Source of the DNA: Candidatus Syntropharchaeum caldarium
Lineage (GTDB): Archaea; Halobacteriota; Syntropharchaeia; Syntropharchaeales; Syntropharchaeaceae
Direction of reading: 5' to 3'
DNA length: 32,000 nt
NCBI GenBank assembly: GCA_001766815.1
Contig: LYOS01000002.1
Location: 354,577-386,576 of the forward strand
Shown here: positions 8,435-28,435 of the stretch, piece after piece
Position numbering within the stretch: position 1 is the stretch's first letter
How the letters are laid out: the number at the start of each line of letters is the position of its first letter
Position numbers and translations under genes: made by a program
The notes under the pieces: model-generated
Told to the model about the DNA's origin: nothing
Databases searched by the model: none
Seen by the model: only the letters and a program-made list of their open reading frames with translations

Positions 8435-8456
8435 GGCATCAATGTACAATCTTTTA

Positions 8457-8472
8457 TGTTATAAGGTTTTCG
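8457..8472 (-). promoter_or_regulatory. Candidate BRE/TATA for the mcr operon.
   Basis: The minus strand reads CGAAAACCTTATAACA about 25 nt upstream of the ATG at 8434. No Shine-Dalgarno sequence lies in between, which would imply a leaderless or very short-leader transcript. Confidence 0.3.
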
Positions 8473-8512
8473 AAAAAATAGTTAGTATTAAAAGTAAAAA
8501 GGCCTGAAAAAC

Positions 8513-11352: not shown

Positions 11353-12252
11353 ATGAAGAAGATCAAGGAGGGCAAGTTTGTTTTTACAGGTGAGCTTGAG
11401 CCTGAGAAGACGACAGATCTCACCGAGCTTGTTGAGAGCGCCAAAAAACTTCTTGGTCACTGTGTTGCGTGCAATGTGACAGATAACCCCCAGTCAATGG
11501 CTTACATGTCAAGCCTCGTGGCATCACATATCGTCCAGCGTGATTCAGGGATGGAGTGCGTCTATCAGCTCAGGTGTTCTGATAGAAACTCGATTGCGTT
11601 AACATCAGATCTTCTGGGGGCGGGTGCACTTGGCATCAGGAACGTTCTTGCCTTAACAGGCGATCATACATCTCTGGGGGATTATCCAGGGTCGATGCCT
11701 GTCTTCGATCTTGATTCTGGGCAGCTTGTATATCTGATCAGGCGCATGGTGGATGAGGGGGTTGATCTCAATGGAAAGCCGATAGAACATCCACCCAGGT
11801 TCCACGTAGGCGTGGCTGGAAACCCAAACGCAGACCCGCTCGATTCTGAGATCTTGAAGCTCAAACGGAAGGTCGAGGCTGGGGCTGAGTTTGTCCAGAC
11901 ACAGGTCATATTCGATATTGAGATTGCAAAGACGTTCCTTAAAGAGATGGAGAAGTACAAGGTCCCGGTCTTAATCGGCATTTTCCCGCTCAAGAACTAT
12001 GGAACAGCCGATTACTTCGATAAGTATATTCCAGGCGTGCACGTGCCAAAAGATCTTCTTGCAAAGATGAAAGAGGCATCGGAGATCGGAGACAAGAAGA
12101 AGAAGATGGAGCGGTATGATGAGATAAACCTCGACTATTACGGAGATTTTGTCCATGAAATCGCACATAACACCTCTGCTGCTGGAATACATGTCATGGC
12201 GGTGGCTTATGAGCGGATAACCCCACCACTTATCGAGTGTGCGAAAATATGA
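11353..12252 (+). CDS. metF: MetF-type 5,10-methylene-tetrahydrofolate/H4MPT reductase.
   Basis: The N-terminus GKFVFTGELEPEKT matches MetF and the fold length is about 300 aa. An alternative TTG start at 11329 overlaps the metV stop (TTGA) and follows a GGGGGTG RBS. Confidence 0.8.
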   Translation: MKKIKEGKFVFTGELEPEKTTDLTELVESAKKLLGHCVACNVTDNPQSMAYMSSLVASHIVQRDSGMECVYQLRCSDRNSIALTSDLLGAGALGIRNVLALTGDHTSLGDYPGSMPVFDLDSGQLVYLIRRMVDEGVDLNGKPIEHPPRFHVGVAGNPNADPLDSEILKLKRKVEAGAEFVQTQVIFDIEIAKTFLKEMEKYKVPVLIGIFPLKNYGTADYFDKYIPGVHVPKDLLAKMKEASEIGDKKKKMERYDEINLDYYGDFVHEIAHNTSAAGIHVMAVAYERITPPLIECAKI

Positions 12253-14210: not shown

Positions 14211-14212
14211 GG

Positions 14213-15928
14213 ATGAAGATACTTGTATTTATCTGCGGGTGCCAGGGAAAGATCGAGGAGGTGCTTGATCTCGATGCACTCTCAGCCTTCACATCCACGA
14301 TCGAGGACGTCGAGGCAGTGAAGATCGATCGATACCTCTGTGGTAAGGAGGGTCTCTCGCTCTTCAAAGAGGAGGTTATGCGTGTTAAGCCCGATCGCGT
14401 GATCATTGCTGGATGCTCTCCCCGTCTTCATGGCGAGATATTTGCAGAGGCGCTAGAAGACGCTGGTATGAATCCACACCTCAGAGAGCATGTGAACATC
14501 AGAGAACAGTGTGCATGGGCGCACTTCGATGATTTAGATGGTGCAAACCGCAAGGCAAAGAAGCTCATGGAGATGGGGATTGCAAAGGTCAGGCTCAAGC
14601 GACCGCTTGACAAGATTAATGTAGAGATGAAACCAGCAGCTCTTGTTATTGGTGGTGGTGTTTCTGGTATGGAAGCAGCTTTGGATCTTTCAAATGGTGG
14701 TTTCAAGGTTTATCTTGTTGAACGAGAAGCTGAACTTGGTGGACGAGTCAAACGATTGAGCCAGACATTTCCCACTGTTGGATGCGGCATCTGCTGTATG
14801 CATGACTGTCCTGATTGTGTACTCACACCACAGGTGGAGGAGGTCTTATCTGATGAGAATATCGAGGTCTTAACCTCCACGACCGTTGAGAAGGCGGATG
14901 GCTTTATTGGAAACTATAAAGTTAGACTCACCGGTGGCGGAGAGATCGATGTTGGAACTGTAATAATTGCAACAGGAACCAAGACTTTTGATCCGAACCG
15001 TATTCCTGAGTATAGCTATTCCTCAGCCGATGTCATAACCTCGCTTGAGCTTGAGGATCTCTATATGAAGGCACGGTCAGATGGTGGCCAGATAAAGCGC
15101 CCCTCAGATGGTAAGATCCCTGAATCCATCAACTTCATCCAGTGTGTTGGATCAAGAGGGATCAAGGGTGGAAATCCGTACTGCTCGATCGTCTGCTGTA
15201 TATATGCACTTGGCCATGCGAGGGAGTTCAAGTCCCGCTACCCGGACGCTGAAGTTACCATTCATTACATCGATCTTAGATCACCCTATCGTGGATTTGA
15301 GGAGTACTACAACGAAGCACGTGATATGGGTGTTAACTTTGTAAGAGGAGAGATTGATAAAATTGAGGAGCGAGAGGACGGTGTCTATATTATGGGCACC
15401 AATCGAGATACAAAGGAGAGATATGAGATGAAATCAGATCTCGTAGTCCTCTCAGTCGGGCAGGAACCAGCGGATAATACGCGTGAGCTTGCAAATTTGT
15501 TCAACCTTGAGCTTGATCAGGACGGATTCTTTTTAGAGAAAAACCTGCGGCTGATCGGGGAGGATACATCGGGTGTCTATGTCGCTGGCGCAGCCAATGG
15601 TCCAAGAAATATACGTTACTCTGTCGCAGACGGAAGGGTTATGGCTGAAGCTGCCATCGAGCGAATCGGTGCTGAGAGAATCCTGCTTGAGGGGGTTGTT
15701 GCCAGAATTGATCAGGACCTCTGCATCAAATGTGCGACATGTCTTGAGGTATGCCCATACGGGATTGTTGAAATTGTCCGTGAGGATGCAGAAGAGATAC
15801 GTCTCGAGGTGCTTGAGGGTGGATGCAGGGCATGCGGGATATGTGCTGCTGAGTGCCCAGCATCTGCGATACAGCTTGAGGACTTCAGGGATGATCAGAT
15901 ACTTGCTGAGGTGGAGGTTGCGATATGA
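14213..15928 (+). CDS. HdrA-like flavoprotein, a variant lacking the inserted ferredoxin domain.
   Basis: It shows ICGCQGK, CSPRLHGE, NIREQCAWAH, GGGVSG and the new Cys motif CGICCMHDCPDC, plus CSIVCCIY and a C-terminal 2x[4Fe-4S] domain. The ATG lies 2 nt after the previous stop. Confidence 0.85.
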   Translation: MKILVFICGCQGKIEEVLDLDALSAFTSTIEDVEAVKIDRYLCGKEGLSLFKEEVMRVKPDRVIIAGCSPRLHGEIFAEALEDAGMNPHLREHVNIREQCAWAHFDDLDGANRKAKKLMEMGIAKVRLKRPLDKINVEMKPAALVIGGGVSGMEAALDLSNGGFKVYLVEREAELGGRVKRLSQTFPTVGCGICCMHDCPDCVLTPQVEEVLSDENIEVLTSTTVEKADGFIGNYKVRLTGGGEIDVGTVIIATGTKTFDPNRIPEYSYSSADVITSLELEDLYMKARSDGGQIKRPSDGKIPESINFIQCVGSRGIKGGNPYCSIVCCIYALGHAREFKSRYPDAEVTIHYIDLRSPYRGFEEYYNEARDMGVNFVRGEIDKIEEREDGVYIMGTNRDTKERYEMKSDLVVLSVGQEPADNTRELANLFNLELDQDGFFLEKNLRLIGEDTSGVYVAGAANGPRNIRYSVADGRVMAEAAIERIGAERILLEGVVARIDQDLCIKCATCLEVCPYGIVEIVREDAEEIRLEVLEGGCRACGICAAECPASAIQLEDFRDDQILAEVEVAI

Positions 15929-17634
15929 TCGGCGTATTCTTGTGTGGCTGTGATGGCGAGGTATCAGAGAGGATCGAGCTTAAGTGGCTGGGCGAGGTTG
16001 CAGAGCGTGATCCAGATGTTGGGTATCTCGAGATAGATGAGCACCTCTGCAGTAAGGAGGCGGTCAGGAAGATAAGGTCGATTGTAGAGTCAAAGAACCT
16101 CGATAGGATTGTTATCGCCGGATGCTCTCCCAGAACTCATGAGAAGATCTTTGATGACCTTGCACCGATCGTTGAGTTTGCAAACATACGTGAGCAGGCT
16201 GCATGGGTCCATCCAGAGAAAGAAGAGGCAACACGGGTTGCAGCAGATATTTTACAGTCTGCAATAGTCCGTGCAAAACTGGCAGCAGAGCTTGAACCAG
16301 TCAGAGTTCCGATCGAGCCATCATGTCTCGTGATCGGTGGCGGAGTTTCAGGTATGCAGGCAGCATCAGATCTTTCTGCTCAAGGGTACAGGGTCTATCT
16401 TGTTGAGCGGGATGAGCGGCTTGGTGGACGGGTAAAGCGACTCTCAATGACCTTCCCCACCATTAGTTGTGGTTTTCCATGCAGACACGACTGTCCTGAG
16501 TGTGAACTGACGCCAAAAGAGGAAGAGCTCTATGCATCCGAGTTTGTTGAGATCTTAACATCCACAGAGGTCATGGAAGTAGAGGGCAGGATCGGGGACT
16601 ACCATGTCACGCTCAGGACTCCAGAAGGGGTGCGCGAGATAAAGGTCGGCACCGTCGTTATTGCAACAGGGACAAAAACCTATGATCCATCCAGAATTCC
16701 TGAGTATGGTTATGAGTTTGAGGATGTCATCACATCGATCGAGCTTGAGGATCTTTACATGAAGCACAGGTTCCTTGGTGGAGGTGGGGAGCTTAGAAGG
16801 CCATCTGATGATGCAATACCGAAACGAGTGGATTTCATCCAGTGTGTCGGATCAAGGGGAGAGAAAGGAGGAAATCCGTACTGCTCGATCGTCTGCTGTC
16901 TCTATGGGATCGGGCATGCACGTGCGATAAAAGAGATGCACCCAGCATGCGAGGTTTATCTCCACTTCACAAATATCCAGGCTCCATACAGGGGGTTTGA
17001 GGAGTATTACAAGGAATCCGAGTCACTCGGGGTCAACTTCGTGCGTGGTGAGGTGAAGTTAGTTGAGAAGGGTGAAGAAGGACTTGTTATAACATACGAG
17101 AATGTCGACCTGCAAAAGAGCTTTGAAGAAGCGACCGATCTTGTGGTGCTATCTGTCGGTCAGGAACCATCAGATGGAGCAAAAGAGCTTGCAGAACTCT
17201 TCTACAGAGAACTTGATCCAGATGGCTTCTTCACTGAGGTCAACCAGAAGATTGTCAGAGAGGATGCAACCGGGGTCTTTGTTGCAGGTTGTGCGCTTGG
17301 GCCCCGTAATATCCGCTATGCGGTTGCAGACGGCAAGATTGCAGCAGAGAATGCGCTGGCGCTCCTCAAAAAGGGTGAATTCGAGATGGAAGGGATAATG
17401 CCGATCGTTGATGATACAAAGTGCATCGGGTGTAATATCTGCGGAAATCTCTGCTACTTCGGGGCGATTGGTGTGACGGAGGAGATAGCAGAGGTTGTTG
17501 AGGGTAAGTGCAGAGGATGTGGGATCTGTGCTGCAGCCTGCCCTGAGAAGGCGATCACGCTCACACAGTTTGATGACGAAGAGATTACGGCTCAGATTGA
17601 GGTATTTGCCAGAGCAGGGGAGGTGTCTGGATGA
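15925..17634 (+). CDS. HdrA-like flavoprotein, the second copy of the variant type.
   Basis: It has the same architecture as 14213..15928 (LCGCDGE, CGFPCRHDCPEC, CSIVCCLY, C-terminal ferredoxin). An ATGA overlap links it to the upstream gene. Confidence 0.85.
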   Translation: MIGVFLCGCDGEVSERIELKWLGEVAERDPDVGYLEIDEHLCSKEAVRKIRSIVESKNLDRIVIAGCSPRTHEKIFDDLAPIVEFANIREQAAWVHPEKEEATRVAADILQSAIVRAKLAAELEPVRVPIEPSCLVIGGGVSGMQAASDLSAQGYRVYLVERDERLGGRVKRLSMTFPTISCGFPCRHDCPECELTPKEEELYASEFVEILTSTEVMEVEGRIGDYHVTLRTPEGVREIKVGTVVIATGTKTYDPSRIPEYGYEFEDVITSIELEDLYMKHRFLGGGGELRRPSDDAIPKRVDFIQCVGSRGEKGGNPYCSIVCCLYGIGHARAIKEMHPACEVYLHFTNIQAPYRGFEEYYKESESLGVNFVRGEVKLVEKGEEGLVITYENVDLQKSFEEATDLVVLSVGQEPSDGAKELAELFYRELDPDGFFTEVNQKIVREDATGVFVAGCALGPRNIRYAVADGKIAAENALALLKKGEFEMEGIMPIVDDTKCIGCNICGNLCYFGAIGVTEEIAEVVEGKCRGCGICAAACPEKAITLTQFDDEEITAQIEVFARAGEVSG

Positions 17635-18359
17635 AGATTCTTGTATTCTGCTGTGACTGGTGTTCCTACCCAGGTGCGGATCTTGCAGGCATCCTGAGGC
17701 TTGAATATCCACCAGAAGTCAGGATCATAAAGGTGATGTGCTCAGGCAGGGTGGATCCGATGCTCGTGCTCGATGCGTTGAGGCAGGGAATTGATGGCGT
17801 GATGGTGACAGGTTGCCATCCTGGTGAATGCCACTACGTCCACGGGAATATGGAGGCTGAGCGAAGGATTGAGCTTCTAAGATCAATATTTGAGAGATCT
17901 GGGATAAACCCCAGGCGTGTGAGGATTGAGTGGATCTCGGCATCAGAGGGTGAAAAGTTTGCAGAGGTTACACGTGCATTTAAACAGGAGATCGATGAGA
18001 TTGGACCCATCAATCAAGGTGAGATCGATGCAGCAGAAATCATCCATGATGTATTCTCATCAGAGCGGGCAAGACTTGTCCTTGGCGCTTCAAGGCGTGC
18101 GATCGAACTTGAGGGCGTTGATCCTCTCTGGTATAAAGGGGTTCTTGAGCGTACGGTGCGAGAGGAGGTTTTGCGTGAGCGGATACTCAGAGAACTGCGA
18201 AAGAGTGGTGCCCTGAGCGCACATGAACTTGCAGAACGGATCGGTGAACCAGCAAAGGAGATCTTCTGGAACTTGATCGCGATGAAACGAAGGCAGATCA
18301 TTCTTGATATGGGGATAGTAGATGATTCACTCAAGTTTGCCATACAGGAGGGTGTGTGA
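17631..18359 (+). CDS. mvhD: MvhD-like [2Fe-2S] protein with a C-terminal extension of about 110 aa (possible winged helix).
   Basis: The N-terminal part, FCCDWCSY...VMCSGRVD...VTGCHPGECHY, matches MvhD. Residues from about 128 to 242 are extra and include ILRELRKSGALSAHELAERIGEPAKEIFWNLIAMKRR. An ATGA overlap links it upstream. Confidence 0.85.
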   Translation: MKILVFCCDWCSYPGADLAGILRLEYPPEVRIIKVMCSGRVDPMLVLDALRQGIDGVMVTGCHPGECHYVHGNMEAERRIELLRSIFERSGINPRRVRIEWISASEGEKFAEVTRAFKQEIDEIGPINQGEIDAAEIIHDVFSSERARLVLGASRRAIELEGVDPLWYKGVLERTVREEVLRERILRELRKSGALSAHELAERIGEPAKEIFWNLIAMKRRQIILDMGIVDDSLKFAIQEGV

Positions 18360-20317
18360 TGAGAATCGGTGTCTATGTCTGCCACTGCGGGATCAATATC
18401 GGTGCAACCGTGGATGTTAAAAAGGTTGCTGAGTTCGCATCCCATCTCAAAGACGTTGTCATCTCCCGTGAGTACAGTTACATGTGCTCAGATCCAGGTC
18501 AGGAGCTTATAAAGAAGGATATACGGGAATTAGGACTTGACCGGGTCGTTGTTGCATCCTGTTCGCCCAGAATGCATGAGCCAACATTCAGGACCGCGGT
18601 CGCAGAGGCAGGCTTGAATCCTTATCTTTTTGAGATGGCAAACATCAGGGAGCACTGCTCATGGGTGCACGATGATCGTGAACGTGCAACCGAGAAGGCG
18701 ATGCACCTTGTTGCAGGCTCTGTCTATAAGTCAAAGCTTCTTGAACCACTCGAGCCAATGCAGGTTGGAATCACGAAGAAAGCGCTTGTCATGGGTGCAG
18801 GGATCGCTGGAATTCAGACAGCCCTTGATATCGCAGATTCAGGCTTCGAGGTCTATCTTGTTGAGCGATCGCCTTCCGTGGGTGGAAAGATGGCGCAGCT
18901 TGATAAGACGTTCCCAACGCTGGACTGCTCTGCGTGTATCCTGACACCAAAAATGGTCGATGCAGGGAGGCACCCAAATATCGAGCTCATGACATACTCA
19001 GAAGTAATTGATATCGATGGTTATGTCGGAAACTTCAAGGTCAAGATCAAGAAGAAGCCGAGATTCATCGATATCGAGAAGTGCACAGGCTGTGGTGAGT
19101 GTGCATCCCGCTGCCCGGTGGATGTTCCAAATGAGTTTGATGAAGGGATCGGAATCCGAAGTGCAATCTATATTCCATTCCCACAGGCGGTCCCCTTGAA
19201 GTACACGATCGATCGTGATAGCTGTATCCGCTGTGGGACATGCAAGAATGTCTGCAAACGTGATGCAATCGACTATGATCAGACCGAGGAGATCGTAGAA
19301 CTTGATGTAGGGGCAATCGTTGCTGCAACAGGCTATGACCTGATGGATGTGAGTTCCAGGGAGGAGTATGGCTACGGCAGGTTTGATAATGTCATAACAG
19401 GCCTGGAGTTTGAGCGGTTATGCAATGCATCAGGTCCAACCGGTGGAAAGATTCTCACAAAGGATGGTAGAGAACCCAAAGATGTTATCTTCATCCAGTG
19501 TGTCGGATCCAGGGAGATTGGGGGCAATGAATACTGTTCAAGGTTCTGCTGCATGTACACGGCAAAGCACGCACATCTTGTCGAGGACAGGATTGAAAGC
19601 GGCAAGGCGAAGGTTTTATTCACGGATGCACGGGCTTATGGCAAGGGCTTCGAAGAGTTCTATGTGCGGGTGATGGAGGAGGGTGTCGACTACTACAGGC
19701 GTGATCATGACAAACCAGTCAGTGTCACCGAAAGGGAGGATGGCAAGCTTATTGTTACAGCAACCGCGCTTGATGGCTCGCCAATTGAGCTTGAAGGGGA
19801 TATGGTCGTGCTCGCAACAGCAGCCACGGCATGTGAGGATGCGTTTGAGGTATCAAGGCTTCTAAATATCTCACGAACAGGCGATGGCTTCTTCATGGAG
19901 GCACATCCAAAATTAAGGCCGATTGATACACCATCTGATGGAATCTTCCTTGCAGGCTGTTCACAGGGACCAAAGGATATTCCTGACACGGTTGCTCAAG
20001 CTTCTGGTGCAGCTTCACAGGTTCTGAACCTGCTCGCCCAGGATTCAACGACCGGTTCACCGAGCGTATCAGAGGTAAACCAGGATATCTGCATCGGGTG
20101 TGCCACGTGCTTTGAGGTCTGTCCATACGGTGCGATCGAGATGGAGCGGCTTGAGGTTGGGTGGCGTGCAAAGACGAACGAGGTCGTATGTAAGGGCTGT
20201 GGTATCTGCGCCGGCGAATGTCCTGCACTTGCGATCAATGTGAAGCACTTTACGGATGAACAGATAATAAATAAGATTGAAGGTGTTCTTGCTGATTTGA
20301 ACGAGGTGGTAACATGA
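18359..20317 (+). CDS. hdrA: Heterodisulfide reductase subunit A (canonical architecture), a paralog of 12249..14210.
   Basis: It has the same motif set as the first hdrA, and the 5' ends are near-identical at the DNA level. The start overlaps the mvhD stop (TGATG). An alternative GTG start lies at 18356. Confidence 0.9.
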   Translation: MRIGVYVCHCGINIGATVDVKKVAEFASHLKDVVISREYSYMCSDPGQELIKKDIRELGLDRVVVASCSPRMHEPTFRTAVAEAGLNPYLFEMANIREHCSWVHDDRERATEKAMHLVAGSVYKSKLLEPLEPMQVGITKKALVMGAGIAGIQTALDIADSGFEVYLVERSPSVGGKMAQLDKTFPTLDCSACILTPKMVDAGRHPNIELMTYSEVIDIDGYVGNFKVKIKKKPRFIDIEKCTGCGECASRCPVDVPNEFDEGIGIRSAIYIPFPQAVPLKYTIDRDSCIRCGTCKNVCKRDAIDYDQTEEIVELDVGAIVAATGYDLMDVSSREEYGYGRFDNVITGLEFERLCNASGPTGGKILTKDGREPKDVIFIQCVGSREIGGNEYCSRFCCMYTAKHAHLVEDRIESGKAKVLFTDARAYGKGFEEFYVRVMEEGVDYYRRDHDKPVSVTEREDGKLIVTATALDGSPIELEGDMVVLATAATACEDAFEVSRLLNISRTGDGFFMEAHPKLRPIDTPSDGIFLAGCSQGPKDIPDTVAQASGAASQVLNLLAQDSTTGSPSVSEVNQDICIGCATCFEVCPYGAIEMERLEVGWRAKTNEVVCKGCGICAGECPALAINVKHFTDEQIINKIEGVLADLNEVVT

Positions 20318-20715
20318 GTTTTGAACCGTCAATTGTTGCCTTCTGCTGTAACTGGTGCTCTTATGCGGCAGCAGACCTGGCAGGAGTGAGTCGTATGAAA
20401 TATCCACCGAATGTGAGGATCATCCATGTTCCATGCTCTGGAAAGGTTGATCAGATCTATATCCTGAAAGCCCTTGAGATGGGGGCAGATGGGGTGCTTG
20501 TTACAGGGTGTATGGAAGGACAGTGCCATTATCTCACAGGAAACTACTACACCCGTGACCGTGTCGAGCGCCTGAAACGCGATCTTGAGAAGGTGGGGCT
20601 GGGCGGCAGGGTGGATATGTTCATGATGTCTGCTGCGATGGGGCGTGAATTTGCAGATACTGCAACGAGATTTACAGAGAAGATAAGAGAACTGGGACCG
20701 AACCCGTATAAGTAG
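20314..20715 (+). CDS. mvhD: MvhD, the standard-length 133-aa form.
   Basis: It shows FCCNWCSY...VPCSGKVD...VTGCMEGQCHY. An ATGA overlap links it to the hdrA stop. It ends in TAG. Confidence 0.9.
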   Translation: MSFEPSIVAFCCNWCSYAAADLAGVSRMKYPPNVRIIHVPCSGKVDQIYILKALEMGADGVLVTGCMEGQCHYLTGNYYTRDRVERLKRDLEKVGLGGRVDMFMMSAAMGREFADTATRFTEKIRELGPNPYK

Positions 20716-20748: not shown

Positions 20749-21804
20749 ATGAGATCGGTGATAAGGGTTGAGAGAGTAGATATCGGAAGGTTGAAGGTGA
20801 TTTTTGGGTATAATCCAGATCACATCGCAAAGATAAAGACTGTCAGAGGCTATAGATGGCATCCTGATGGGAAATACTGGAGTGTGCCTTACTCTGAATT
20901 TGAAAGGCTCATATCAGTTTTTGGTTGTGAAAAGCTTGATATCGATCCTGTTGTATGGCTCAGCAAGCTTGAAAAGGAGCTTGCTGCAAGAAGATACAGT
21001 TCAAAGACGAAAAAAGCCTATCTTCATTACAATGAAGACTTTTTAAAGTTTTCTCGCAAAAACCCCACCGAAATATCCAATGATAATGTAAAAGATTATC
21101 TATTTCATCTGGTGGAGAAAAAAGAAGTCTCTACATCCACTTTGAATACAGCGATCAACGCATTGAAGTTTTACTATGGTGAGGTTTTGAAGCGAAGGTT
21201 TGCTTACGAGATAAAGAGGCCAAAGAAGGATAAGAAGCTTCCTGTTGTTCTGAGTCAGGAGGAGGTTTCAAGGATTATATCTTCCGTTACAAATCTCAAA
21301 CACAAACTGATTTTGATGCTTGTCTATTCTGCTGGTTTGAGGGTTAGCGAGGTTGTAACGTTGAAGCCGGAGGATATCGATGTGGAAAGGGAGCTTATCC
21401 ATGTTAAGGGAGCCAAGGGCAGAAAGGACAGATACACGATGCTTTCGGATGTGGCGATGGGGGCTCTGGAGCTGTATCTAAAGGCGTATCGACCCGAGAA
21501 ATGGCTCTTTCCCGGACAAAAATCCAGTTCCCACATCACAACGAGAACGGTGCAGAGGATATTTGAAGACGCCATCGAGAAGGCGGGGATCAAGAAGGAT
21601 GTTAGTGTTCATTCGTTAAGGCACAGCTTCGCAACACATTTACTGGAGGGCGGGACAGACCTGCGGTATATCCAGGAGCTGCTTGGGCATAAAAGTTCGA
21701 AGACGACAGAAATATATACGCATGTGAGTAAGAAAGACCTGAGTAACATAAAAAGTCCATTAGACTCTATCCTGACTCAAGAGGTAGTGGATGAAGATCG
21801 GTGA
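20749..21804 (+). CDS. Tyrosine recombinase/integrase, Xer-like, with an extra N-terminal domain of about 70 aa.
   Basis: The full catalytic set is present: R in AGLRVSE, K in VKGAKGRKDR, HSLRHSF, LGHKS and EIYTHV. The R-to-H spacing is 90 residues, which is Xer-like and not IntI-like. Confidence 0.9.
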   Translation: MRSVIRVERVDIGRLKVIFGYNPDHIAKIKTVRGYRWHPDGKYWSVPYSEFERLISVFGCEKLDIDPVVWLSKLEKELAARRYSSKTKKAYLHYNEDFLKFSRKNPTEISNDNVKDYLFHLVEKKEVSTSTLNTAINALKFYYGEVLKRRFAYEIKRPKKDKKLPVVLSQEEVSRIISSVTNLKHKLILMLVYSAGLRVSEVVTLKPEDIDVERELIHVKGAKGRKDRYTMLSDVAMGALELYLKAYRPEKWLFPGQKSSSHITTRTVQRIFEDAIEKAGIKKDVSVHSLRHSFATHLLEGGTDLRYIQELLGHKSSKTTEIYTHVSKKDLSNIKSPLDSILTQEVVDEDR

Positions 21805-21820
21805 AGTTCTGCCAGAGGGA

Positions 21821-21890
21821 GGTATATACGAAGTTTACTTCCGATATACCGCTAAATTTGAAGGATATACGACATTGATGTCGTATATAA
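21821..21890. other. Two adjacent core-type recombination-site candidates, 17 bp downstream of the integrase stop.
   Basis: Site 1 (21821-21850) reads GGTATATACGA-AGTTTACT-TCCGATATACC (11-8-11). Site 2 (21863-21890) reads GGATATACGAC-ATTGAT-GTCGTATATAA (11-6-11). All four half-sites fit GG(T/A)TATACGA. Confidence 0.6.
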
Positions 21891-21900
21891 ATGAGCAGAT

Positions 21901-21957
21901 GCGCAATTGAGGTTTTGCCCTTCGGGTTACTCACTTCGTTCGCAATTCTCAATCGCC
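21901..21957. repeat. Structured repeat A (hairpin carrying a degenerate copy of the shared core).
   Basis: GCGCAATTGAGG (21901-21912) pairs with TTCTCAATCGCC (21946-21957). The loop contains TTCGGGTTACTCAC. The right arm recurs inverted at 22080-22091 (GGCGATTGAGAA). Confidence 0.5.
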
Positions 21958-22036
21958 TTAATCCCTCACTTCATTTAACAGCAAAAAATAAGACAAGTGA
22001 TTAAAAAGAATGTGAAATTAAAACTTTACATAACGA

Positions 22037-22312
22037 AAAGGTTAAATGAAATTCTCTTATCAGAGAACTACGCTCGGGAGGCGATTGAGAACAAAACCCC
22101 AACTTCTCCGCTCCTCGCTTCGCTGCGGTGCTCGACCACGTTGCACTCTCACTCCGCTACGCTCCGTTCGGGGCGCATTACACCCGCTAACCGATTCGCT
22201 CCTTGCAGTCACTCATCCAAATTTTGCTTCGCAAAACTTCGGTTAGCTTTTTCGTTAGGCGTAATTGGGGGCAAAAAGATTCAAAGGGAACTCCCCGGTT
22301 AAGTTAATATAT
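22037..22312. repeat. ORF-less module consisting of structured repeat B, bounded by two GTTAA(A/G)T boundary motifs.
   Basis: It contains the boundaries AAAAGGTTAAATGAAAT (GTTAAAT at 22041-22047) and CCCCGGTTAAGTTAAT (GTTAAGT at 22298-22304). Other elements are the core TTCGGGGCGCATTACACCCG (22167-22186), a 9-bp inverted repeat GCTAACCGA (22187-22195) / TCGGTTAGC (22239-22247), the hairpin TTTTGC-TTC-GCAAAA, and GTTAGGC at 22254-22260. Confidence 0.55.
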
Positions 22313-22346: not shown

Positions 22347-22544
22347 ATGGCAAGAAAGGTGTGTGTATTGTGTGGGAAACAACACGGAATAATGCCATCT
22401 TCACCATTGGGGAAATGGCATCAATGCACAAACTGCGGACGGATATACTGCGATAGCTGTGGTGCAAAACTTAGAAGAGCAGGAACACTATCTCGTGAAC
22501 GCATATGCCCACATTGCGGAAATGAAACCACGTTGATTCCCTAA
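22347..22544 (+). CDS. Small double zinc-ribbon protein (65 aa).
   Basis: It has four CxxC pairs: CVLCG, CTNCG, CDSCG and CPHCG. The RBS AAGGTGA and a TATA-like TTAATATAT lie upstream. Confidence 0.7.
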   Translation: MARKVCVLCGKQHGIMPSSPLGKWHQCTNCGRIYCDSCGAKLRRAGTLSRERICPHCGNETTLIP

Positions 22545-22716
22545 TACGTCTTTGCCCCCCAACTCTTCGCAACCTTTTGGGTTGCTCGTCCTCGCTGTCG
22601 CTCGGATCACTTAACACGGTGTATGCGGTTCGAGTTATGCCCTCCCCCAAATGCCTCGCTACGCTCGGCACTTCGCATACACCAAAGCCGTTATATGACA
22701 TTCTGCCCCCCTCGCC
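22545..22716. repeat. Structured repeat C, a long imperfect palindrome.
   Basis: The core CTCGGATCACTTAACACGG (22601-22619) includes ACTTAAC. A perfect 10-bp stem, GGTGTATGCG (22618-22627) / CGCATACACC (22674-22683), is present. An inverted core copy, GCCGTTATATGAC, begins at 22688. Confidence 0.6.
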
Positions 22717-22762: not shown

Positions 22763-23272
22763 ATGGCAACAATAAAAGATATACTCAAATCAAAGAAAAA
22801 GCCTAAAGAAATTGTTGAACTTTTGGCTGAAAAATTTAAAAGTGATGATAAAGCGATTGACGAACTTATACAATGCTTTAGAGATGGAACTACTGCTGAG
22901 AAAGGTAACTGCATGGAAGCGATAGAATATATTACCAAAGAAAGTCCAGAATTTGCCGAAGATTGCCTTGATTTCGTTATCGAGCATATCAATGATAAAA
23001 CTCCGAGGGTAAAATGGGAAGCTTGCAGAATAATTGGCAATGTTGCCCAAGAATTTCCAGATAAAGTTAAAAATGCTGTCCCAAAGCTCTTAGAAAACAC
23101 AAAAGATAAAGAAACAGTTGTAAGATAGAGTGCCGCTTTTGCTTTGACCGAGATTGCAAAAAGTAACCCAGCAATGCAAAAAGAACTTGTTCCTGAATTT
23201 AAGAAAGTACTAGAAAGAGAAGACAACAAGGGAGTGAAAAATATTTACATGAAATATCTTAAAGGTGCATGA
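22763..23272 (+). pseudogene. HEAT-repeat protein interrupted by a single in-frame TAG at 23126-23128.
   Basis: The reading frame continues through the TAG inside a HEAT motif (ETVVR-TAG-SAAFALTEIAK). It ends with an ATGA overlap onto the next gene's ATG (23269). Confidence 0.55.
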
Positions 23273-23757
23273 CTATGATAGATGATGTTAGGGATATAAT
23301 TGAAAGAGGAATTCTTTCTTTGCATGATGCTCTTCCTGAAATAAGGGAACTTGCATCCAGTGATGATTGGAGAAAACGGGAAGATGCAGCTACTGCACTG
23401 GTAGAGATCACCAAAAAGAGGAAAGATGAAGTTGTAAGTGAGATGATAATATGGGCAGAGGAAAAAGACCCCAATATTCGCAGAGTCTCAAGTGAAGGAT
23501 TGAGGGGTGTAGCGAGAAGAAATCCAGAGAAGATTTTACCAGTAATTGAAAAACTGAAAACTGACAATAGCCTTTATGTCAGAAAGTCCGTTGCTGCTCT
23601 TCTTAGGGCGATAAGCAAGAAAAATCCTGAATTTGTGGCGGATTTATGCAGAAAATGGGCAAAACTGAAAAATAAAAATACTAACTGGATAATAACACAG
23701 GGTATAAAGAAGTTATCAAAAGAGCAGCAGGAAGAATTAAAATCTTTATTAGATTAG
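23269..23757 (+). CDS. HEAT-like repeat protein (DNA alkylation repair enzyme-like).
   Basis: It shows repeated helical HEAT-type motifs (NIRRVSSEGLRGVA, LYVRKSVAALLRAI) and a C-terminal WAKLKNKNTNW. The family assignment is from pattern memory only. Confidence 0.6.
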   Translation: MTMIDDVRDIIERGILSLHDALPEIRELASSDDWRKREDAATALVEITKKRKDEVVSEMIIWAEEKDPNIRRVSSEGLRGVARRNPEKILPVIEKLKTDNSLYVRKSVAALLRAISKKNPEFVADLCRKWAKLKNKNTNWIITQGIKKLSKEQQEELKSLLD

Positions 23758-23766
23758 GTGAATAAA

Positions 23767-24654
23767 ATGGTTAATGAAATCAAAGTTAAATCAATACTAA
23801 ACAAACACAAAAAGAGGGATGATTGGTTTTTGGACGATTATTCAGTAAATCCTTATTCGGGTTGTTCTTTCAACTGTATTTACTGCTACATAAGAGGGAG
23901 TAAATATGGAGAAAATATGGCAAAGACTTTATCGGCAAAAATAAACGCCCCGGAACTTCTGGAAAAACAGCTTTCAAGAAGAGCAAAGAGAGGAGAATAT
24001 GGAATTATTGCTTTGTCATCTTCAACGGAGCCCTACATGCCAATTGAAGAAAAACTGAAGTTGACAAGAAAATTGCTTGAGATAATTCTGAAGTATAGAT
24101 TTCCTGTTGAAATTGCTACTAAATCAAAACTTGTTTTGAGGGATTTGGATTTATTAAAAGAGATCGCTAAGAATGCAATTTTGCCAGATGATTTGGAACC
24201 TAAACTGAAACATGGGGCAATTATTTCCTTTTCCATCTCAACTCTGGACGAGAAATTGGCAAAAATTCTTGAACCGGGAGCTCCTAAACCTATAGAGAGA
24301 TTGGATGCGATGAAAAGATGTAAAGAGAGGGGATTTTTTACTGGAATATGTTTTATTCCCGTTTTGCCATTTTTATCAGATTCTGAGGAACAAGTTGAGG
24401 AAACGATAAAAACTGTGAAGGAATATGGAGCAGATTTCATTTTTGTTGGTGGCTTAACTTTATTTGGTAAGGGGCCAGCGGATTGTAAGACTCTTTATTA
24501 TAAATTCTTGGAAAAATATCATCCTGAGCTTGTGCCAAAATATAAGAGTTTATACAGAATCTTTTTTGCACCATCAAAAGAATATCAAAAAGAGCTTGAA
24601 GAAAAATCAAGGAGGTTGTGTGAGAGATATGGAATTAAAAATGGGATTATCTAA
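23767..24654 (+). CDS. Radical SAM protein (SplB / DNA-repair-photolyase-like, COG1533-type).
   Basis: It has the CxxxCxxC motif NPYSGCSFNCIYCY near the N-terminus. The ATG at 23767 is preceded by AGGTG. An alternative GTG start lies at 23758. Confidence 0.75.
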   Translation: MVNEIKVKSILNKHKKRDDWFLDDYSVNPYSGCSFNCIYCYIRGSKYGENMAKTLSAKINAPELLEKQLSRRAKRGEYGIIALSSSTEPYMPIEEKLKLTRKLLEIILKYRFPVEIATKSKLVLRDLDLLKEIAKNAILPDDLEPKLKHGAIISFSISTLDEKLAKILEPGAPKPIERLDAMKRCKERGFFTGICFIPVLPFLSDSEEQVEETIKTVKEYGADFIFVGGLTLFGKGPADCKTLYYKFLEKYHPELVPKYKSLYRIFFAPSKEYQKELEEKSRRLCERYGIKNGII

Positions 24655-24803
24655 TGACGGTTTTGGGGCGGAACGCTTCGTCGCTTCGCTCCTCGCCCTC
24701 ACTTCGTTCGGGTCATATAACACGGGCTATACGGCTCACTCCGTTCGCCCAAATTTCGCCTTACGGCGAAACTTCACATATCCCCAAAACGTTAAGTGAA
24801 ATA
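24655..24803. repeat. Structured repeat D.
   Basis: It contains TTTTGGGG (24661-24668) paired with CCCCAAAA (24782-24789), and the core TTCGGGTCATATAACACGGG (24707-24726). It also has the hairpin TTCGCC-TTAC-GGCGAA and the right end CTTCACATATCCCCAAAACGTTAAGTGAAAT (GTTAAGT at 24791-24797). Confidence 0.6.
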
Positions 24804-24864
24804 CCCAAGCCCGCCTTGGGAAAGGATTTAAAAGTTGAAGCAAAACAATAAAACTGGGTACGAT

Positions 24865-25173
24865 ATGATAAAAGATATATCAGTTGATGAAATAAAAAGA
24901 ACTCTTAAAAAATATAAAAGTGAGCTAAAAGAGAAATTCGGAGTTAAAGAGATTGGTGTGTTTGGCTCCTATGTAAGAAGAGAACAGAAAAAAGGCAGTG
25001 ATATTGACATCCTCGTTGAATTTCATCCAGATACTGAGATGGACTTAATAAAATTTGTTGAACTCGAAGAATATCTATCTAAACTATTAGGAATAAAAGT
25101 TGATCTGGTAATGAAATCTGCTCTTAAACCACGGATAGGAAAGCGGATATTGAAAGAGGTAGTTTATATATGA
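24865..25173 (+). CDS. mntA: MNT-type nucleotidyltransferase (antitoxin partner of HepT).
   Basis: It has the motif GVFGSYVRREQKKGSDIDILV and is 102 aa. I prefer the ATG at 24865 over the TTG at 24835. Confidence 0.85.
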   Translation: MIKDISVDEIKRTLKKYKSELKEKFGVKEIGVFGSYVRREQKKGSDIDILVEFHPDTEMDLIKFVELEEYLSKLLGIKVDLVMKSALKPRIGKRILKEVVYI

Positions 25174-25537
25174 AAAGAGAAGCCGGCGACTTTATTGAAG
25201 ATATTATCAATGATCATATCAATGATCAATGCGATGAATAAAGCGTTAAAGTTTGTTGAGGGGATGTCTTATGAAGAGTTTGCCAAAGATGACAAAACCG
25301 TTTTTGCTGTTATTAGAGCTATTGAAATAATCGGAGAGGCTGTAAAAAAATATACCCGAAGATATAAGGAAAGAGTATCCCGAAATTCCCTGGAAGGGGA
25401 TGGCTGGGATGAGAGACAAAGTTATTCACGGGTATTTTGGAGTAGATATCAAAGTTGTGTGGGATACTGTTACAAAGAGAATTCCGGGACTTAAACCACT
25501 GGTTGAGAAGATGTTAGAAGAGCTGGAGGAGAAATAG
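25170..25537 (+). pseudogene. hepT: HepT (DUF86) RNase toxin gene, disrupted twice.
   Basis: An ATGA overlap links it to the MNT stop. An insertion of about 19 nt containing ATCAATGATCA twice (25206-25228) breaks the frame after MKREAGDFIEDII. A 7-A run (25344-25350) shifts the frame again just before IPEDIRKEYPEIPWKGMAGMRDKVIHGYF. The Rx4HxY motif is readable only in the shifted frame. Confidence 0.75.
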
Positions 25538-25540
25538 ATC

Positions 25541-25649
25541 TGACGTTAGGCAGACTCGGGCACTCTGCAGTGCTTCGCACTTGCCTTTCGGGTCATATAA
25601 CAAGCGGAATATCTGGCTTCAGATATCCACCAACCCTTAACTGAAATGC
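25541..25649. repeat. Structured repeat E.
   Basis: It contains GTTAGGC (25545-25551) and the core TTCGGGTCATATAACAAG (25587-25604). A 9-6-8 inverted site GGAATATCT-GGCTTC-AGATATCC lies at 25606-25628. The right end is CCACCAACCCTTAACTGAAATGC. Confidence 0.6.
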
Positions 25650-25716
25650 TGTGCCTGAGAAAGACAAAAAGGATGGGCAAGGAAACTTTATAGCTGGAAA
25701 GGGGTTTAACATAACT

Positions 25717-26412
25717 ATGATAAAGATCATTACCATTTGTTTACCACTACCTTATAAGTTAGGTACCGTAAATTGCTACCTCATAGAAACCGACATCGGC
25801 TATATTCTGATCGACACAGGGTGCTCAAATAAGCGCACCGAGCTTGAAAAAGAACTTGAAAGAGCGGGGTGTAAACCCGGCAATCTCAAACTCATCGTTT
25901 TAACCCATGGAGATTTTGACCACACAGGTAATGCAGCTCATCTCCGTGAAAAGTTCGGTGCAAGGATAGCGATGCATCATGATGATTCGGGAATGAGCGA
26001 ACGTGGAGACATGTTCTGGAACAGAAGAAAAGGCAATATTCTCCTTGGAATGATAGCTCGTATCCTGTTCAGATTTGGCAAAAAGGAAAGATTCAAACCA
26101 GATTTATATATTGATGAGGGATACGATCTCTCTGAATACGGACTCGATGCAAAAGTTCTTCATATTCCAGGCCACTCAAAAGGTTCAATAGGAATCCTGA
26201 CAGCCAATGGCGACCTGTTTTGCGGAGATTTGCTTGAAAATAAAGACAAACCAGTTCTCAGCTCTATTATGGACGACTTAACAACGGCAAATGCCAGTGT
26301 TGAGAAACTGAAAAGATTGGAAATAAAAACTGTTTATCTAGGGCATGGAAAGCCCTTCCCGATGGAACTGTTTATGAAACATCACCGAAAAAGGGATAAA
26401 GAGGAAAATTAA
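25717..26412 (+). CDS. MBL-fold metallo-hydrolase.
   Basis: It has VLTHGDFDHTGN and HIPGHSKGS motifs. The ATG at 25717 gives a typical N-terminus, MIKIITICLPLPY. Confidence 0.8.
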   Translation: MIKIITICLPLPYKLGTVNCYLIETDIGYILIDTGCSNKRTELEKELERAGCKPGNLKLIVLTHGDFDHTGNAAHLREKFGARIAMHHDDSGMSERGDMFWNRRKGNILLGMIARILFRFGKKERFKPDLYIDEGYDLSEYGLDAKVLHIPGHSKGSIGILTANGDLFCGDLLENKDKPVLSSIMDDLTTANASVEKLKRLEIKTVYLGHGKPFPMELFMKHHRKRDKEEN

Positions 26413-27162
26413 ATGTCTCAATTAAAACAAAATCCGCTTATTGGTGTCGAAACTGCAAATTCCAGCTGGAATTGGCTCTACAGAGTCGCAGGAGTGGCTG
26501 CCCTGATCTCATTAGTGATTATCCCGATCCAGGTCATCATCTTCATCGTCTCGCCGCCACCAACCACTGCAATCGGTTGGTTCACCCTGTTTCAAAACAA
26601 TAAGCTCCTGGGGCTCCTGGCTTTTGAACTCTTGATTATTGTCAGCAATGCTCTTGCGATTCCGATATATCTCGCATTCTACGCCGCCCTCAGACGAGTC
26701 AGTGAATCTTTCATGGCCATCGCCACGGTCATCGGCTTGGTGGGGATTGTGGCTTCCTTCGTAGCGAGACCCGCCTTCGAAATGCTTTACCTCAGCGACC
26801 AATACGCGGCTGCCACAACAGATTCGCAATCCATGTTCCTGGCAGCAGGGGAGGTTATGATTGCCATGTCCAAGGGCACTGCTTCTCATTTGAGTTACAT
26901 CTTCGCGGCCTTAGCCCCTCTGATAATCTCGGTTGTCATGCTGCGGAGCAATATCTTCAGCAAGGCAACTGCTTATATTGGAATTCTGGCAAATGTGATT
27001 GCATTGGGCTTTTACGTGCCAGAGATAGGCATCATTTTTGGAATCATTTCTGTCTGCCCGTTTTTGATGATATGGGAGATCCTGATTGCCCGAAGGTTCT
27101 TCCAGTTAGGGCGCGGTATCTCTAAAGAGGAGGCAAATCGGATTGGAGGTATGTCTCGATGA
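26413..27162 (+). CDS. Integral membrane protein (DUF4386-like; low-confidence family call).
   Basis: It is 249 aa with about 6-7 hydrophobic segments. Its start abuts the MBL stop. Confidence 0.6.
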   Translation: MSQLKQNPLIGVETANSSWNWLYRVAGVAALISLVIIPIQVIIFIVSPPPTTAIGWFTLFQNNKLLGLLAFELLIIVSNALAIPIYLAFYAALRRVSESFMAIATVIGLVGIVASFVARPAFEMLYLSDQYAAATTDSQSMFLAAGEVMIAMSKGTASHLSYIFAALAPLIISVVMLRSNIFSKATAYIGILANVIALGFYVPEIGIIFGIISVCPFLMIWEILIARRFFQLGRGISKEEANRIGGMSR

Positions 27163-27641
27163 AAGCATTGGTAATTTACGATTCGGTTTTTGGCAATACA
27201 GAGCAAATAGCCCAAGTGATTGGTAACGCGATGGGTTCCCAAGCAGAGGTCAACATACTTCGTGTGGGTAATGTGAAGCCAGAACATTTGACAGGTTTGG
27301 ACGTGCTCATCGTCGGCTCTCCTACCCGGGGATTCAAACCTACAAAAGCGATTACAAATTTTCTGAAAAGAATTCCAAAAAATGGTCTAAAAGGTGTCAA
27401 GGTAGCTGCATTTGATACCAGGTTTACAATGAGTGCTATAGAAGAATCACGCGTGTTACCATTTTTTGTAAGATTATTTGGCTATGCCGCCAAGCCGATC
27501 TCAGACAGACTCAAGAAAAAAGGGGGAGAATTGATCATCCCTCCTGAAGGGTTCTTTGTAGAAGGGGTAGAAGGTCCACTGAAAGAAGGCGAACTTGAAC
27601 GAGCTGCGGATTGGGCAAAGCAAATCATAGCAACACAATAA
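27159..27641 (+). CDS. Flavodoxin.
   Basis: It has the N-terminal FMN-phosphate loop MKALVIYDSVFGNTEQIA and VGSPTRGF. An ATGA overlap links it to the upstream gene. Confidence 0.8.
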   Translation: MKALVIYDSVFGNTEQIAQVIGNAMGSQAEVNILRVGNVKPEHLTGLDVLIVGSPTRGFKPTKAITNFLKRIPKNGLKGVKVAAFDTRFTMSAIEESRVLPFFVRLFGYAAKPISDRLKKKGGELIIPPEGFFVEGVEGPLKEGELERAADWAKQIIATQ

Positions 27642-27657
27642 ATCGCCCAACAACCGC

Positions 27658-28029
27658 ATGGAGCTGACACTCGAAGATGTTAAAGAAGTCGACCTTGAAA
27701 AGTTAGCGGATTGTTATGCAATGTTGATAGGGTTGCCAAATCATTGGGGTGGGCCTTCTCGAACTATTAGAAAGTTTATTGATAAGCTTGACAAACTTGA
27801 CTTGAAGGCGAAGTGGTTCGCTGTTTTCGATACCTATCTTGGGGGAGATTTCGAGAAGGCTGTGAAGAAAATGGAGAAGAGAATAGGCGAAAAGATTCCT
27901 AGCCTGAAGCTAATAACTTCTGGCTTATCCATAAAGGTTGAGGGAATGAAGAGTCCTGTCATAGAAGAAGAGTATCTCAGGTGCAAGGATTTCGGAAAGA
28001 AAATAGCGAATCAACTTCTGAGGTGTTAA
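27658..28029 (+). CDS. Flavodoxin-like protein lacking the N-terminal FMN-phosphate loop; a truncated paralog.
   Basis: It retains the motif LIGLPNHWGGPSRTIRKFIDKL and the C-terminal flavodoxin pattern, but has no SxxGNT loop. Confidence 0.55.
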   Translation: MELTLEDVKEVDLEKLADCYAMLIGLPNHWGGPSRTIRKFIDKLDKLDLKAKWFAVFDTYLGGDFEKAVKKMEKRIGEKIPSLKLITSGLSIKVEGMKSPVIEEEYLRCKDFGKKIANQLLRC

Positions 28030-28030
28030 A

Positions 28031-28435
28031 ATGGGAATAAAGATATATCTATATGCTCTTGGGATTTGGCTCATATTTGTTGCTGCGGGTATCTTGAACG
28101 GAGTATTTAGGGAGTCATTTATCACACCTAAGATAGGAGAACATACAGGTCACATTATCAGCACAGTCATTCTTATCTGTGTTATCTTAGCGGTGACGTA
28201 TCTATTTATCAGCAATTTGAAAATCAACTACACTAAGACAGACCTGCTTTTGATTGGTATGTTTTGGACTATATTAACCATTTTGTTTGAATTTGGCTTC
28301 GGTCACTATGTTATAGGTCATTCATGGAGTAAGTTATTTGCAGATTACAACATCCTTAAAGGGAGAGTATGGAGTCTTGTATTATTAACTACGTTCATCG
28401 CACCATTGTTAATTGGCTACATTCTGAAGAGGTAG
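28031..28435 (+). CDS. Small membrane protein (134 aa, about 4 TM segments).
   Basis: The ORF is hydrophobic and starts 1 nt after the previous stop. Confidence 0.55.
   Translation: MGIKIYLYALGIWLIFVAAGILNGVFRESFITPKIGEHTGHIISTVILICVILAVTYLFISNLKINYTKTDLLLIGMFWTILTILFEFGFGHYVIGHSWSKLFADYNILKGRVWSLVLLTTFIAPLLIGYILKR

Follow-up and report, generated by a model that had tools for sequence, protein, structure and literature searches.

The stretch of DNA analysed here (the window) comprises 32,000 nucleotides from Candidatus Syntropharchaeum caldarium (GenBank assembly GCA_001766815.1, contig LYOS01000002.1, positions 354,577 to 386,576 of the forward strand); coordinates are those of the window unless another locus is named, and the parts of the platform that they delimit lie on the plus strand. 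A tyrosine recombinase gene at 20749..21804 (stop codon TGA at 21802-21804), which encodes a protein of 351 amino acids with Pfam domains Phage_int_SAM_4 and Phage_integrase, is followed directly by two inverted repeats and then, between 22.3 and 25.5 kb, by small genes that are all on the plus strand and are separated by related intergenic repeats. We conclude that this is very probably an integron-like gene-capture platform in an archaeal chromosome, a variant of the integron whose mechanism is proposed from comparison with related loci.

A preliminary description of the sequence had reported the two inverted repeats beside the recombinase gene as dif-like core sites, and checking against the sequence showed that their coordinates and letters were exact. 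Palindrome 1 has an 11-8-11 layout (GGTATATACGA-AGTTTACT-TCCGATATACC, 21821-21850) and opens with the 17th base past the integrase stop, while palindrome 2 has an 11-6-11 layout (GGATATACGAC-ATTGAT-GTCGTATATAA, 21863-21890) and follows after a gap of 12 bases (21851-21862). Within each site, 9 of the 11 arm positions can pair, just as had been stated, and palindrome 2 contains a perfect 9-nt inverted repeat (21865-21888). The gap is occupied by a linker, GCTAAATTTGAA, with a conserved C(C/T)AAAT motif that also occurs inside the attC-like sites described below (alignments A5 and A4), and palindrome 1 is preceded by a leader, CCAGAGGGA (21812..21820), of the (C)AGAGGG or (T)AGGG type found at this position in most aligned loci. 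When folded as single-stranded DNA, the 81 nt from 21815 to 21895 form two hairpins at −13.3 kcal/mol, compared with −4.6 ± 1.75 kcal/mol for shuffled versions (n = 200; z = −4.96), none of which folded as well. No second occurrence of the paired motif in comparable form was found elsewhere in the 32-kb window, and an Rfam scan of the whole window at gathering thresholds returned zero matches.

To place the repeats among relatives, sequence 3′ of the stop codon was taken from 160 integrase homologues. Homologue sets consist of the matches listed in integrase scans of genome and metagenome contigs, with the nearest relatives under-represented. Among the matches listed, most of the closer homologues and some down to ~43% identity share one layout 3′ of the integrase stop: a (C)AGAGGG leader, palindrome 1, a CCAAAT linker, palindrome 2, 5–6 nt such as GAACGA, and then GTTRRRY and GAAAT. 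The hosts are archaea and bacteria, including Bacteroidia, Spirochaetota and a Chryseobacterium plasmid. Alignment A5 of these attI-like regions contains 25 loci (the window and 24 others), across which the arms are paired in 81% of cells, compared with at most 49% in slid controls. Fourteen of the 21 arm pairs are altered on both sides (8 of 12 in palindrome 1, 6 of 9 in palindrome 2), a result reached by none of 500 shuffles. The half-site within the palindromes reads GG(T/A)TATA(C/A)CGAA and recurs as an inverted copy in the R box; the half-site consensus given in the preliminary description was correct, and the L arms of the attC-like sites match it too.

The attI-like option, one of three raised there beside an attP-like site and a Xer/dif module, is supported, because the palindromes stand between a tyrosine-recombinase gene and a cassette array bounded by attC-like sites, and because in relatives the cassettes join just 3′ of palindrome 2. 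We think it highly likely, from these sequence comparisons, that both repeats form the upstream, integrase-docking part of an attI-like primary attachment site, in which palindrome 1 would serve as an accessory integrase-binding module. Class 1 integrons offer an analogy, as attI1 carries the accessory integrase sites DR1 and DR2, and the palindromes may bind integrase in the same manner.

Hairpins placed directly 3′ of a stop codon might instead be purely regulatory, acting as an integrase terminator or attenuator, an operator or a cassette promoter, without any role in recombination; their TATATA(A) strings resemble archaeal TATA boxes in our own reading, and a dual role in recombination and regulation is conceivable. 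We hold the purely regulatory account to be very unlikely. A terminator and promoter scan around the sites made no call at the palindromes, and the same arms are kept in bacteria and archaea despite their different transcription machineries. The attC-like sites also repeat the arm motif, directly in their L arms and in inverted form in their R box. Lastly, palindrome number varies (one in locus L162, two in most loci, three in L083 and L106), yet the last palindrome always lies 2–6 nt, usually 5–6 nt, from the GTT of the junction, a triplet present in all 24 aligned relatives.

The position of that junction could be narrowed by comparing three loci whose attI-like regions are 93–98% identical. 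They are alike as far as G|TTAGGCGA, past which identity falls to 0.57–0.62, the level of the shuffled background (0.58 ± 0.02), so different DNA has been joined at one point. The 5–6 nt ahead of GTT are specific to the attI-like site, and the three bases after GTTA go with the downstream cassette; the exchange would therefore have taken place inside GTTA, which fits the G|TT crossover of integrons. We accordingly place the predicted crossover at G|TT, where the centre meets the right arm of a Xer-type 11-6-11 core that reads, in register, GTTCGGATATG-AAGGAG-TTAGGCGAAAT. Its left arm is supplied by the last palindrome (the right arm of that palindrome), its centre is 6 nt long and its right arm is the R box, which repeats the half-site in inverted and diverged form (TTCG..TA). 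In the window, the predicted core spans 21879..21907, with its left arm TGTCGTATATA at 21879-21889 (the right arm of palindrome 2 doing double duty), its centre AATGAG at 21890-21895 and its right arm CAGATGCGCAAT at 21896-21907; the register comes from alignment A5 and the crossover from the homology breakpoints and the cassette-boundary rule set out below. The preliminary description had read 11-6-11 geometry as that of the recombinase core site: such a core does exist, but in another register, one arm further to the right, and neither palindrome is the crossover core.

Iterated nhmmer searches seeded with the repeats of the window recovered 29 attC-like sites from 15 sources; alignment A4 contains 26 sites. 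The sites run in the order R″ (xxxTAAC), A(C/G), L″ (10 nt), a variable part, ACTT, L′ (10 nt), 5–6 nt, R′ (GTTRRRY) and GAAAT; the variable part holds CCCAAAT and a small hairpin, and overall length ranges over ~60–140 nt (roughly 95 nt). They thus have the R″-L″...L′-R′ order of attC, with RYYYAAC and GTTRRRY ends. Among the 26 aligned sites, the L″/L′ helix is 92% paired, compared with no more than 42% in slid controls, and seven of its ten pairs are altered on both sides; it is gapless and free of extrahelical bases, and the TAAC and GTTA ends are conserved. A covariance model (R1), for which E-values are rough, was run on 1.32 Mb of loci and detected 53 sites. The integrase strand carries 47 of them, all but one 3′ of the integrase stop (46), and the other six are upstream and divergent, in Candidate Phyla Radiation (CPR)/DPANN loci from Patescibacteria, Peregrinibacteria and an archaeon.

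Cassette boundaries follow a rule: R″ fully complements, with its outer three nucleotides, the start (RRY) of the site's own cassette in 16 of 23 junctions, compared with five of 23 for the R′ in situ, and the former count was matched in none of 20,000 permutations. Such complementarity between a cassette's start and its own R″ is the decisive integron signature, as expected of excisable circles whose attC folds by R″/R′ and L″/L′ pairing. The same anatomy might instead serve a purely double-stranded chemistry, in which cassettes are exchanged between L′-6-R′ cores in a Xer-like manner. Precedents are provided by IMEX elements and by the pdif modules of Acinetobacter plasmids, discrete gene modules with Xer-type sites at their borders that may be strung together in arrays. 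L′-spacer-R′ and the attI-like core are indeed collinear, 11-6-11-like sites, the L stems have no extrahelical bases, and the IntI domain, which reads such bases in folded attC, is missing from the integrase. We nevertheless judge this chemistry unlikely: it gives L″ no need to covary with an L′ at least 60 nt away, nor R″ any need to complement the first bases of its own cassette, both of which are expected if the excised cassette contains a folded hairpin. A further difference is that IMEX elements and pdif modules use the host's XerC/D and double-stranded sites, whereas here we see a dedicated, linked integrase and long, hairpin-forming repeats with long-range covariation.

On the window, R1 detected five sites, all on the plus strand between 21966 and 25651, and no further site. 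The first, e′ (21966..22056; 15.4 bits, E = 0.1), is degenerate, flanks no open reading frame (ORF) and retains only R″ ATTTAAC and R′ GTTAAAT. Site a (22168..22269; 62.9 bits, E = 1e-12; also found by nhmmer) has R″ GCATTAC, L″ GCTAACCGA, L′ TCGGTTAGC and R′ GTTAGGC, and is followed by a cassette ORF for a 65-aa zinc-ribbon protein (22347..22544; ORF list and profile scan). Site b (22602..22705; 79.5 bits, E = 1.5e-16; R″ ACTTAAC, L″ GGTGTATGCG, L′ CGCATACACC, R′ GTTATAT) precedes a cassette with HEAT/AlkD-like ORFs and a radical-SAM gene (22763..24654). This ends at site c (24708..24806; 76.3 bits, E = 8e-16; R′ GTTAAGT), whose R″ ATATAAC complements the TTATAT that opens its cassette after site b, in keeping with the boundary rule. 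The next cassette carries a toxin-antitoxin pair (24835..25494), made up of an intact MNT nucleotidyltransferase gene (24835-25173) and a truncated HepT toxin gene (25195-25494), and the array closes with the short site d (25588..25651; 27.4 bits, E = 2e-4; R″ ATATAAC, L stem GGAATATCTG / CAGATATCC, R′ CTTAACT). At sites b, c and d the bottom strand gives a more stable fold than the top strand, a hint that recombination may use the folded bottom strand, as it does in canonical integrons.

Between the preceding stop codons and R″ of sites a, b and c lie GC-rich segments of 50–110 nt with repeats of the CGCTTCG/CTCCTCGC type (22060-22167, 22548-22601 and 24655-24707). At site c, ACGGTTTTGGGG in this segment (24658-24669) is complementary to CCCCAAAACGT, which lies immediately ahead of R′; such a GC-rich segment is missing from most other loci. 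Five co-oriented genes stand 3′ of the last attC-like site (25651-28435), encoding an MBL-fold protein, a DUF4386 protein, a flavodoxin and two proteins of no assigned family.

GC content drops from ~0.50 to 0.35–0.40 directly past the integrase gene and across the array, and is low again at 27.5–28.5 kb. The integrase thus stands at the edge of a low-GC block (22.3–28.5 kb), as it would if the palindromes were an attL- or attP-type site of an integrated virus, plasmid or island and the enzyme excised the block as a whole. We regard this as highly improbable: a tRNA/tmRNA scan for an integration target found none in the window, no single second copy of the core delimits one element, and the scanned ORFs include no viral or conjugation genes. 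The repeats moreover recur every one to three genes (five core-like boxes in 3.7 kb) and obey the cassette rule.

The setting is an archaeal chromosome, given the archaeal core genes on either side: HdrA-like flavoprotein genes and two MvhD/FlpD genes upstream of the platform, and CobQ-like and GatD genes downstream on the other strand. The upstream region (12237-20715) contains four HdrA-like FAD/FeS (iron-sulfur) flavoprotein genes (657, 607, 569 and 653 aa) interleaved with the two MvhD/FlpD genes (17631-18359 and 20314-20715), and the integrase gene starts 33 nt past the last of these. GC skew in the window tracks gene strand.

The integrase itself combines features of IntI and Xer recombinases. 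In sequence it is closest to VchIntIA and XerA, and in Foldseek comparisons VchIntIA (2a3v) and archaeal XerA (5hxy/4a8e) tie as best fold match, with XerH more distant. It passes the NCBIfam XerA_Arch model (NF040815; 253 bits, cutoff 220), falls below the integron-integrase models TIGR02249 (237 bits, cutoff 265, aligned in two stretches) and PRK15417 (176 bits, cutoff 435), and scores 81 bits against a cutoff of 267 with the NCBIfam XerS model. Query residues 233-261 align opposite residues 170-240 of VchIntIA, so the IntI-specific insertion of ~40 residues is missing, as it is at the same position in the homologues. R198, K223, H314 and Y323 are the same in all of 30 homologues, and H288 and R291 in nearly all; these six are taken as the catalytic residues. 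Of 8,000 candidates scored, 7,991 reached E ≤ 1e-20, which makes for a very large family, and one that is common in Bacteroidetes among the matches listed. It also crosses domains, as the protein is 68% identical to a homologue in Thermodesulforhabdus norvegica and 64% identical to one in a Thermodesulfobacterium metagenome-assembled genome (MAG).

A chromosomal XerA/dif module, a further option in the preliminary description, would make this recombinase the host's chromosome-dimer resolvase and one palindrome its dif. It could draw on the XerA_Arch score, on the XerA structures among the top fold matches, on the 11-6-11 geometry of palindrome 2 and on the general knowledge that some single-recombinase Xer systems encode the enzyme beside its site. 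We find it scarcely credible, and the option was set aside. Single contigs can carry two integrase-plus-site units (L089 and L115) and a plasmid carries one, cross-domain identities of 64–68% fit vertical inheritance poorly, the protein carries an extra HARP-like domain, the palindromes vary in spacing (3–8 nt among homologues) and in number (1–3), and variable cassettes with attC-like borders come after the site.

That extra domain occupies the N-terminal ~68 aa of the integrase (20749..20952), for which profile, Pfam and model fold point to a HARP-like or XPB damage-recognition-domain (DRD)-like fold, each with weak scores. A profile of 25 N-termini had a single match in the PDB, the HARP domain of SMARCAL1 (4o66, E = 9e-4), and Pfam HARP matched 8 of 30 members weakly. 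An AlphaFold2 model of the domain (predicted local distance difference test score 89) gave the archaeal XPB N-terminal domain and 4o66 as top Foldseek matches (template-modelling score ~0.6, E = 0.009–0.02). HARP and XPB damage-recognition domains recognise forked or distorted DNA, and the IntI-specific domain of VchIntIA (2a3v) reads the extrahelical bases of folded attC; by analogy, the HARP/DRD-like domain is a candidate substitute for the missing IntI domain in sensing structured DNA. We know of no other fusion of a HARP-like domain to a tyrosine recombinase. In one homologue of 498 aa (P0109) the domain occurs in two tandem copies, which recalls the paired HARP domains of SMARCAL1.

The domain is not essential, because short-form relatives that lack it have the same class of attC-like sites (L047 5200-6440, L038 and L070, from Patescibacteria, Peregrinibacteria and an archaeon). 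These short-form loci have the layout of classical integrons, with a divergent array upstream of the gene, and L047 has an attI-like GAGTTGTACGAAAT upstream.

Several individual loci deserve mention. The closest relative among the matches listed is a near-identical gene in a Candidatus Syntropharchaeales MAG (GCA_054799455.1; L161, 2500-2812), in which the integrase 3′ end is nearly the same as that of the window and carries an in-frame TAG. Its palindromes differ from those of the window by compensating inner-arm changes (GAAG...CTTC versus GAAC...GTTC), and at its junction GAT paired with ATC replaces GTT/AAC. L089 and L115 each carry two family integrases on a single contig. Both copies in L089 (stops at 4186 and 8158) have an attI-like site and following attC of their own; in L115 (stops at 949 and 3957) the attI-like layout is clear only at the first copy. 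A full-length homologue of 42% identity is encoded on a 66-kb plasmid of a cultured isolate, Chryseobacterium sp. SNU WT5 (L164; NZ_CP041688.1, 10035-23033), where a palindrome and ATATAAACAAG|TTGGGAAAAAT come after the integrase gene, and then small genes in the same orientation and a single weak attC-like match (8353-8500). More distant proteobacterial and clostridial homologues of 35–47% identity (L057, L061, L071, L075-L079 and plasmid match H10) have no attI-like site after them and are instead followed by an apparent IS91-family transposase gene, annotated as such under H10; these IS91-linked homologues represent a different use of the same recombinase superfamily.

Classical integrons (IntI1/attI1/attC, and VchIntIA, PDB 2a3v) are the closest parallel. 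They share with the present system a tyrosine recombinase gene with an adjoining primary site and a co-oriented cassette array, the G|TT crossover in GTTRRRY (predicted here across the family), the R″-L″...L′-R′ order of attC with its RYYYAAC and GTTRRRY ends, the complementarity of cassette starts to their own R″, and, presumably, extra integrase sites upstream of the attI core; VchIntIA is also the best match to the present integrase in sequence and, level with XerA, in fold. There are also differences. The present integrase has no IntI-specific insertion, fails both NCBIfam integron-integrase models and bears the HARP-like domain; the attI-like site comes after the gene and faces the same way, unlike that of class 1 integrons; the accessory sites are palindromes as opposed to direct repeats; and the attC-like sites have a clean 10-bp L helix free of extrahelical bases, CCCAAAT and ACTTC motifs, and a bulge of 2 nt versus 5–6 nt. 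XerA/dif of Pyrococcus abyssi and Thermoplasma acidophilum (4a8e, 5hxy) shares the length and fold of the catalytic and core-binding domains, the XerA model score and the putative 11-6-11 core, but is set apart by the extra N-terminal domain, the multiple and plasmid copies, the horizontal distribution and the cassette arrays found here. XerS/difSL and XerH/difH similarly encode a recombinase beside its site, but have one site per chromosome and no cassettes, and the XerS model scores far below its cutoff here.

Archaeal integrons have already been described from MAGs that include ANME-1 and Syntropharchaeia, with a putative attI immediately downstream of intI, integrases that carry the IntI-specific domain and canonical attCs (Ghaly et al., 2022, Sci Adv, PMC9668308; attCs in their Data S9). 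Archaeal MAG hosts and the downstream position of attI are common to both, and the present system might in part be one that these authors reported. The family described here differs in its lack of an IntI domain and in its non-canonical attC, the integrases being set apart by description only. We built an archaeal attC covariance model from six of the nine published attCs (Data S9, PMC9668308) and set its structure by hand, because the nine align poorly in their middle part and RNAalifold on all of them yielded no more than the R stem. This model gave no match at E ≤ 1 in the window and 164 loci (1.38 Mb); when the filters were switched off, the highest-scoring match that overlapped a window site had 7.9 bits (E = 7), so that the sites do not qualify as canonical attCs. 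An initial identification of the window repeats as canonical attCs was dropped after this null result and comparison with the published archaeal sites. In the literature, we found no description of this integrase clade or of palindromic attI sites, only the work of Ghaly et al. (2022) and general integron papers.

The copy in the window looks decayed, and several points tell against an integron-like platform or limit what may be claimed for it. The right arm of the core is degenerate, with CA after G 21895 where TT stands in 24 of 24 aligned relatives, and the R box therefore reads GCAGATG (21895-21901) in place of the GTTRRRY found across the family. The boundary rule holds at only one of five window junctions (b to c), and two cassette genes are disrupted: the first AlkD-like ORF of its cassette (22763-23260) is interrupted by an in-frame TAG (23126-23128), and the HepT ORF matches only profile positions 1-47 of 120, giving it a frameshifted or truncated look. 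An R box without GTT, one compliant junction in five and two broken genes mean that the window copy by itself cannot demonstrate activity. The integrase lacks the IntI-specific domain of canonical integrons, which is held to be essential in IntI. Alignments A4 and A5 and the junction table were hand-curated and come mostly from metagenome contigs; for the attI-like regions this was done because an automatic search for two strict palindromes plus GTT gave only 15 loci. Weaker R1 matches (E between 1e-4 and 1e-2) may include false positives. The role given to the upstream palindromes is guesswork, as these stand head-to-head and form no crossover core, and it is from sequence that we infer integrase binding, cleavage position and choice of strand. 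The integrase ORF itself is intact, with its presumed catalytic residues conserved. The AlkD-like ORF, past whose TAG similar-looking coding sequence continues, is probably a pseudogene, and the first 360 nt past the attI-like site contain only the degenerate sites e′ and a and no ORF. The window copy is probably a sedentary, inactive or decaying platform.

An intact member of the family would, in our proposal, carry on one strand the integrase gene, the attI-like site and the cassette array, in that order, and would join incoming circular cassettes at G|TT of the attI-like core. The attC-like sites would react as folded single strands, in which the L stem, an asymmetric bulge (2 nt versus 5–6 nt) and the R stem, prolonged to ~12 bp through ACTTC/GAAAT, could reproduce the double-stranded attI core; on the 3′ strand of the folded site, arm, spacer and GTTRRRY would come in the same order as in that core. 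Two integrase monomers would sit on each partner, with strand exchange at G|TT as in integrons. The upstream palindromic half-sites may recruit or position additional integrase, comparably to DR1 and DR2 of attI1, and the HARP-like N-terminal domain may help to recognise structured DNA in place of the IntI domain, the absence of which goes together with that of extrahelical bases from the L stem.

More tentatively, at a likelihood that we put a little short of even, these loci may belong to a separate, cross-domain integron lineage, defined by a Xer-like integrase without an IntI domain and often with a HARP/DRD-like N-terminal fusion, by a palindromic attI and by attC without extrahelical bases, and widespread in Archaea, CPR/DPANN, Bacteroidota, Spirochaetota and Thermodesulfobacteriota. 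For the window itself the biological consequence is modest, since this copy looks decayed. For the family it may be larger. Integrons are defined and searched for by the IntI-specific domain and one attC model, and IntegronFinder 2.0 reports almost none in Bacteroidetes and none in complete archaeal genomes; because the NCBI integron-integrase models and the model of published archaeal attCs miss this family, current integron-finding tools probably miss it too. The Chryseobacterium sp. SNU WT5 plasmid (NZ_CP041688.1), carried by a cultured host, makes the system experimentally tractable. If the proposal is true, the way in which a double-stranded core of Xer type gave rise to a folded site of integron type would be open to direct study, because both substrates are visibly collinear here; the IntI domain, thought essential for folded attC, would be dispensable or replaceable in cassette capture; and cassette capture would be far more widespread than surveys show, including across the divide between archaea and bacteria.

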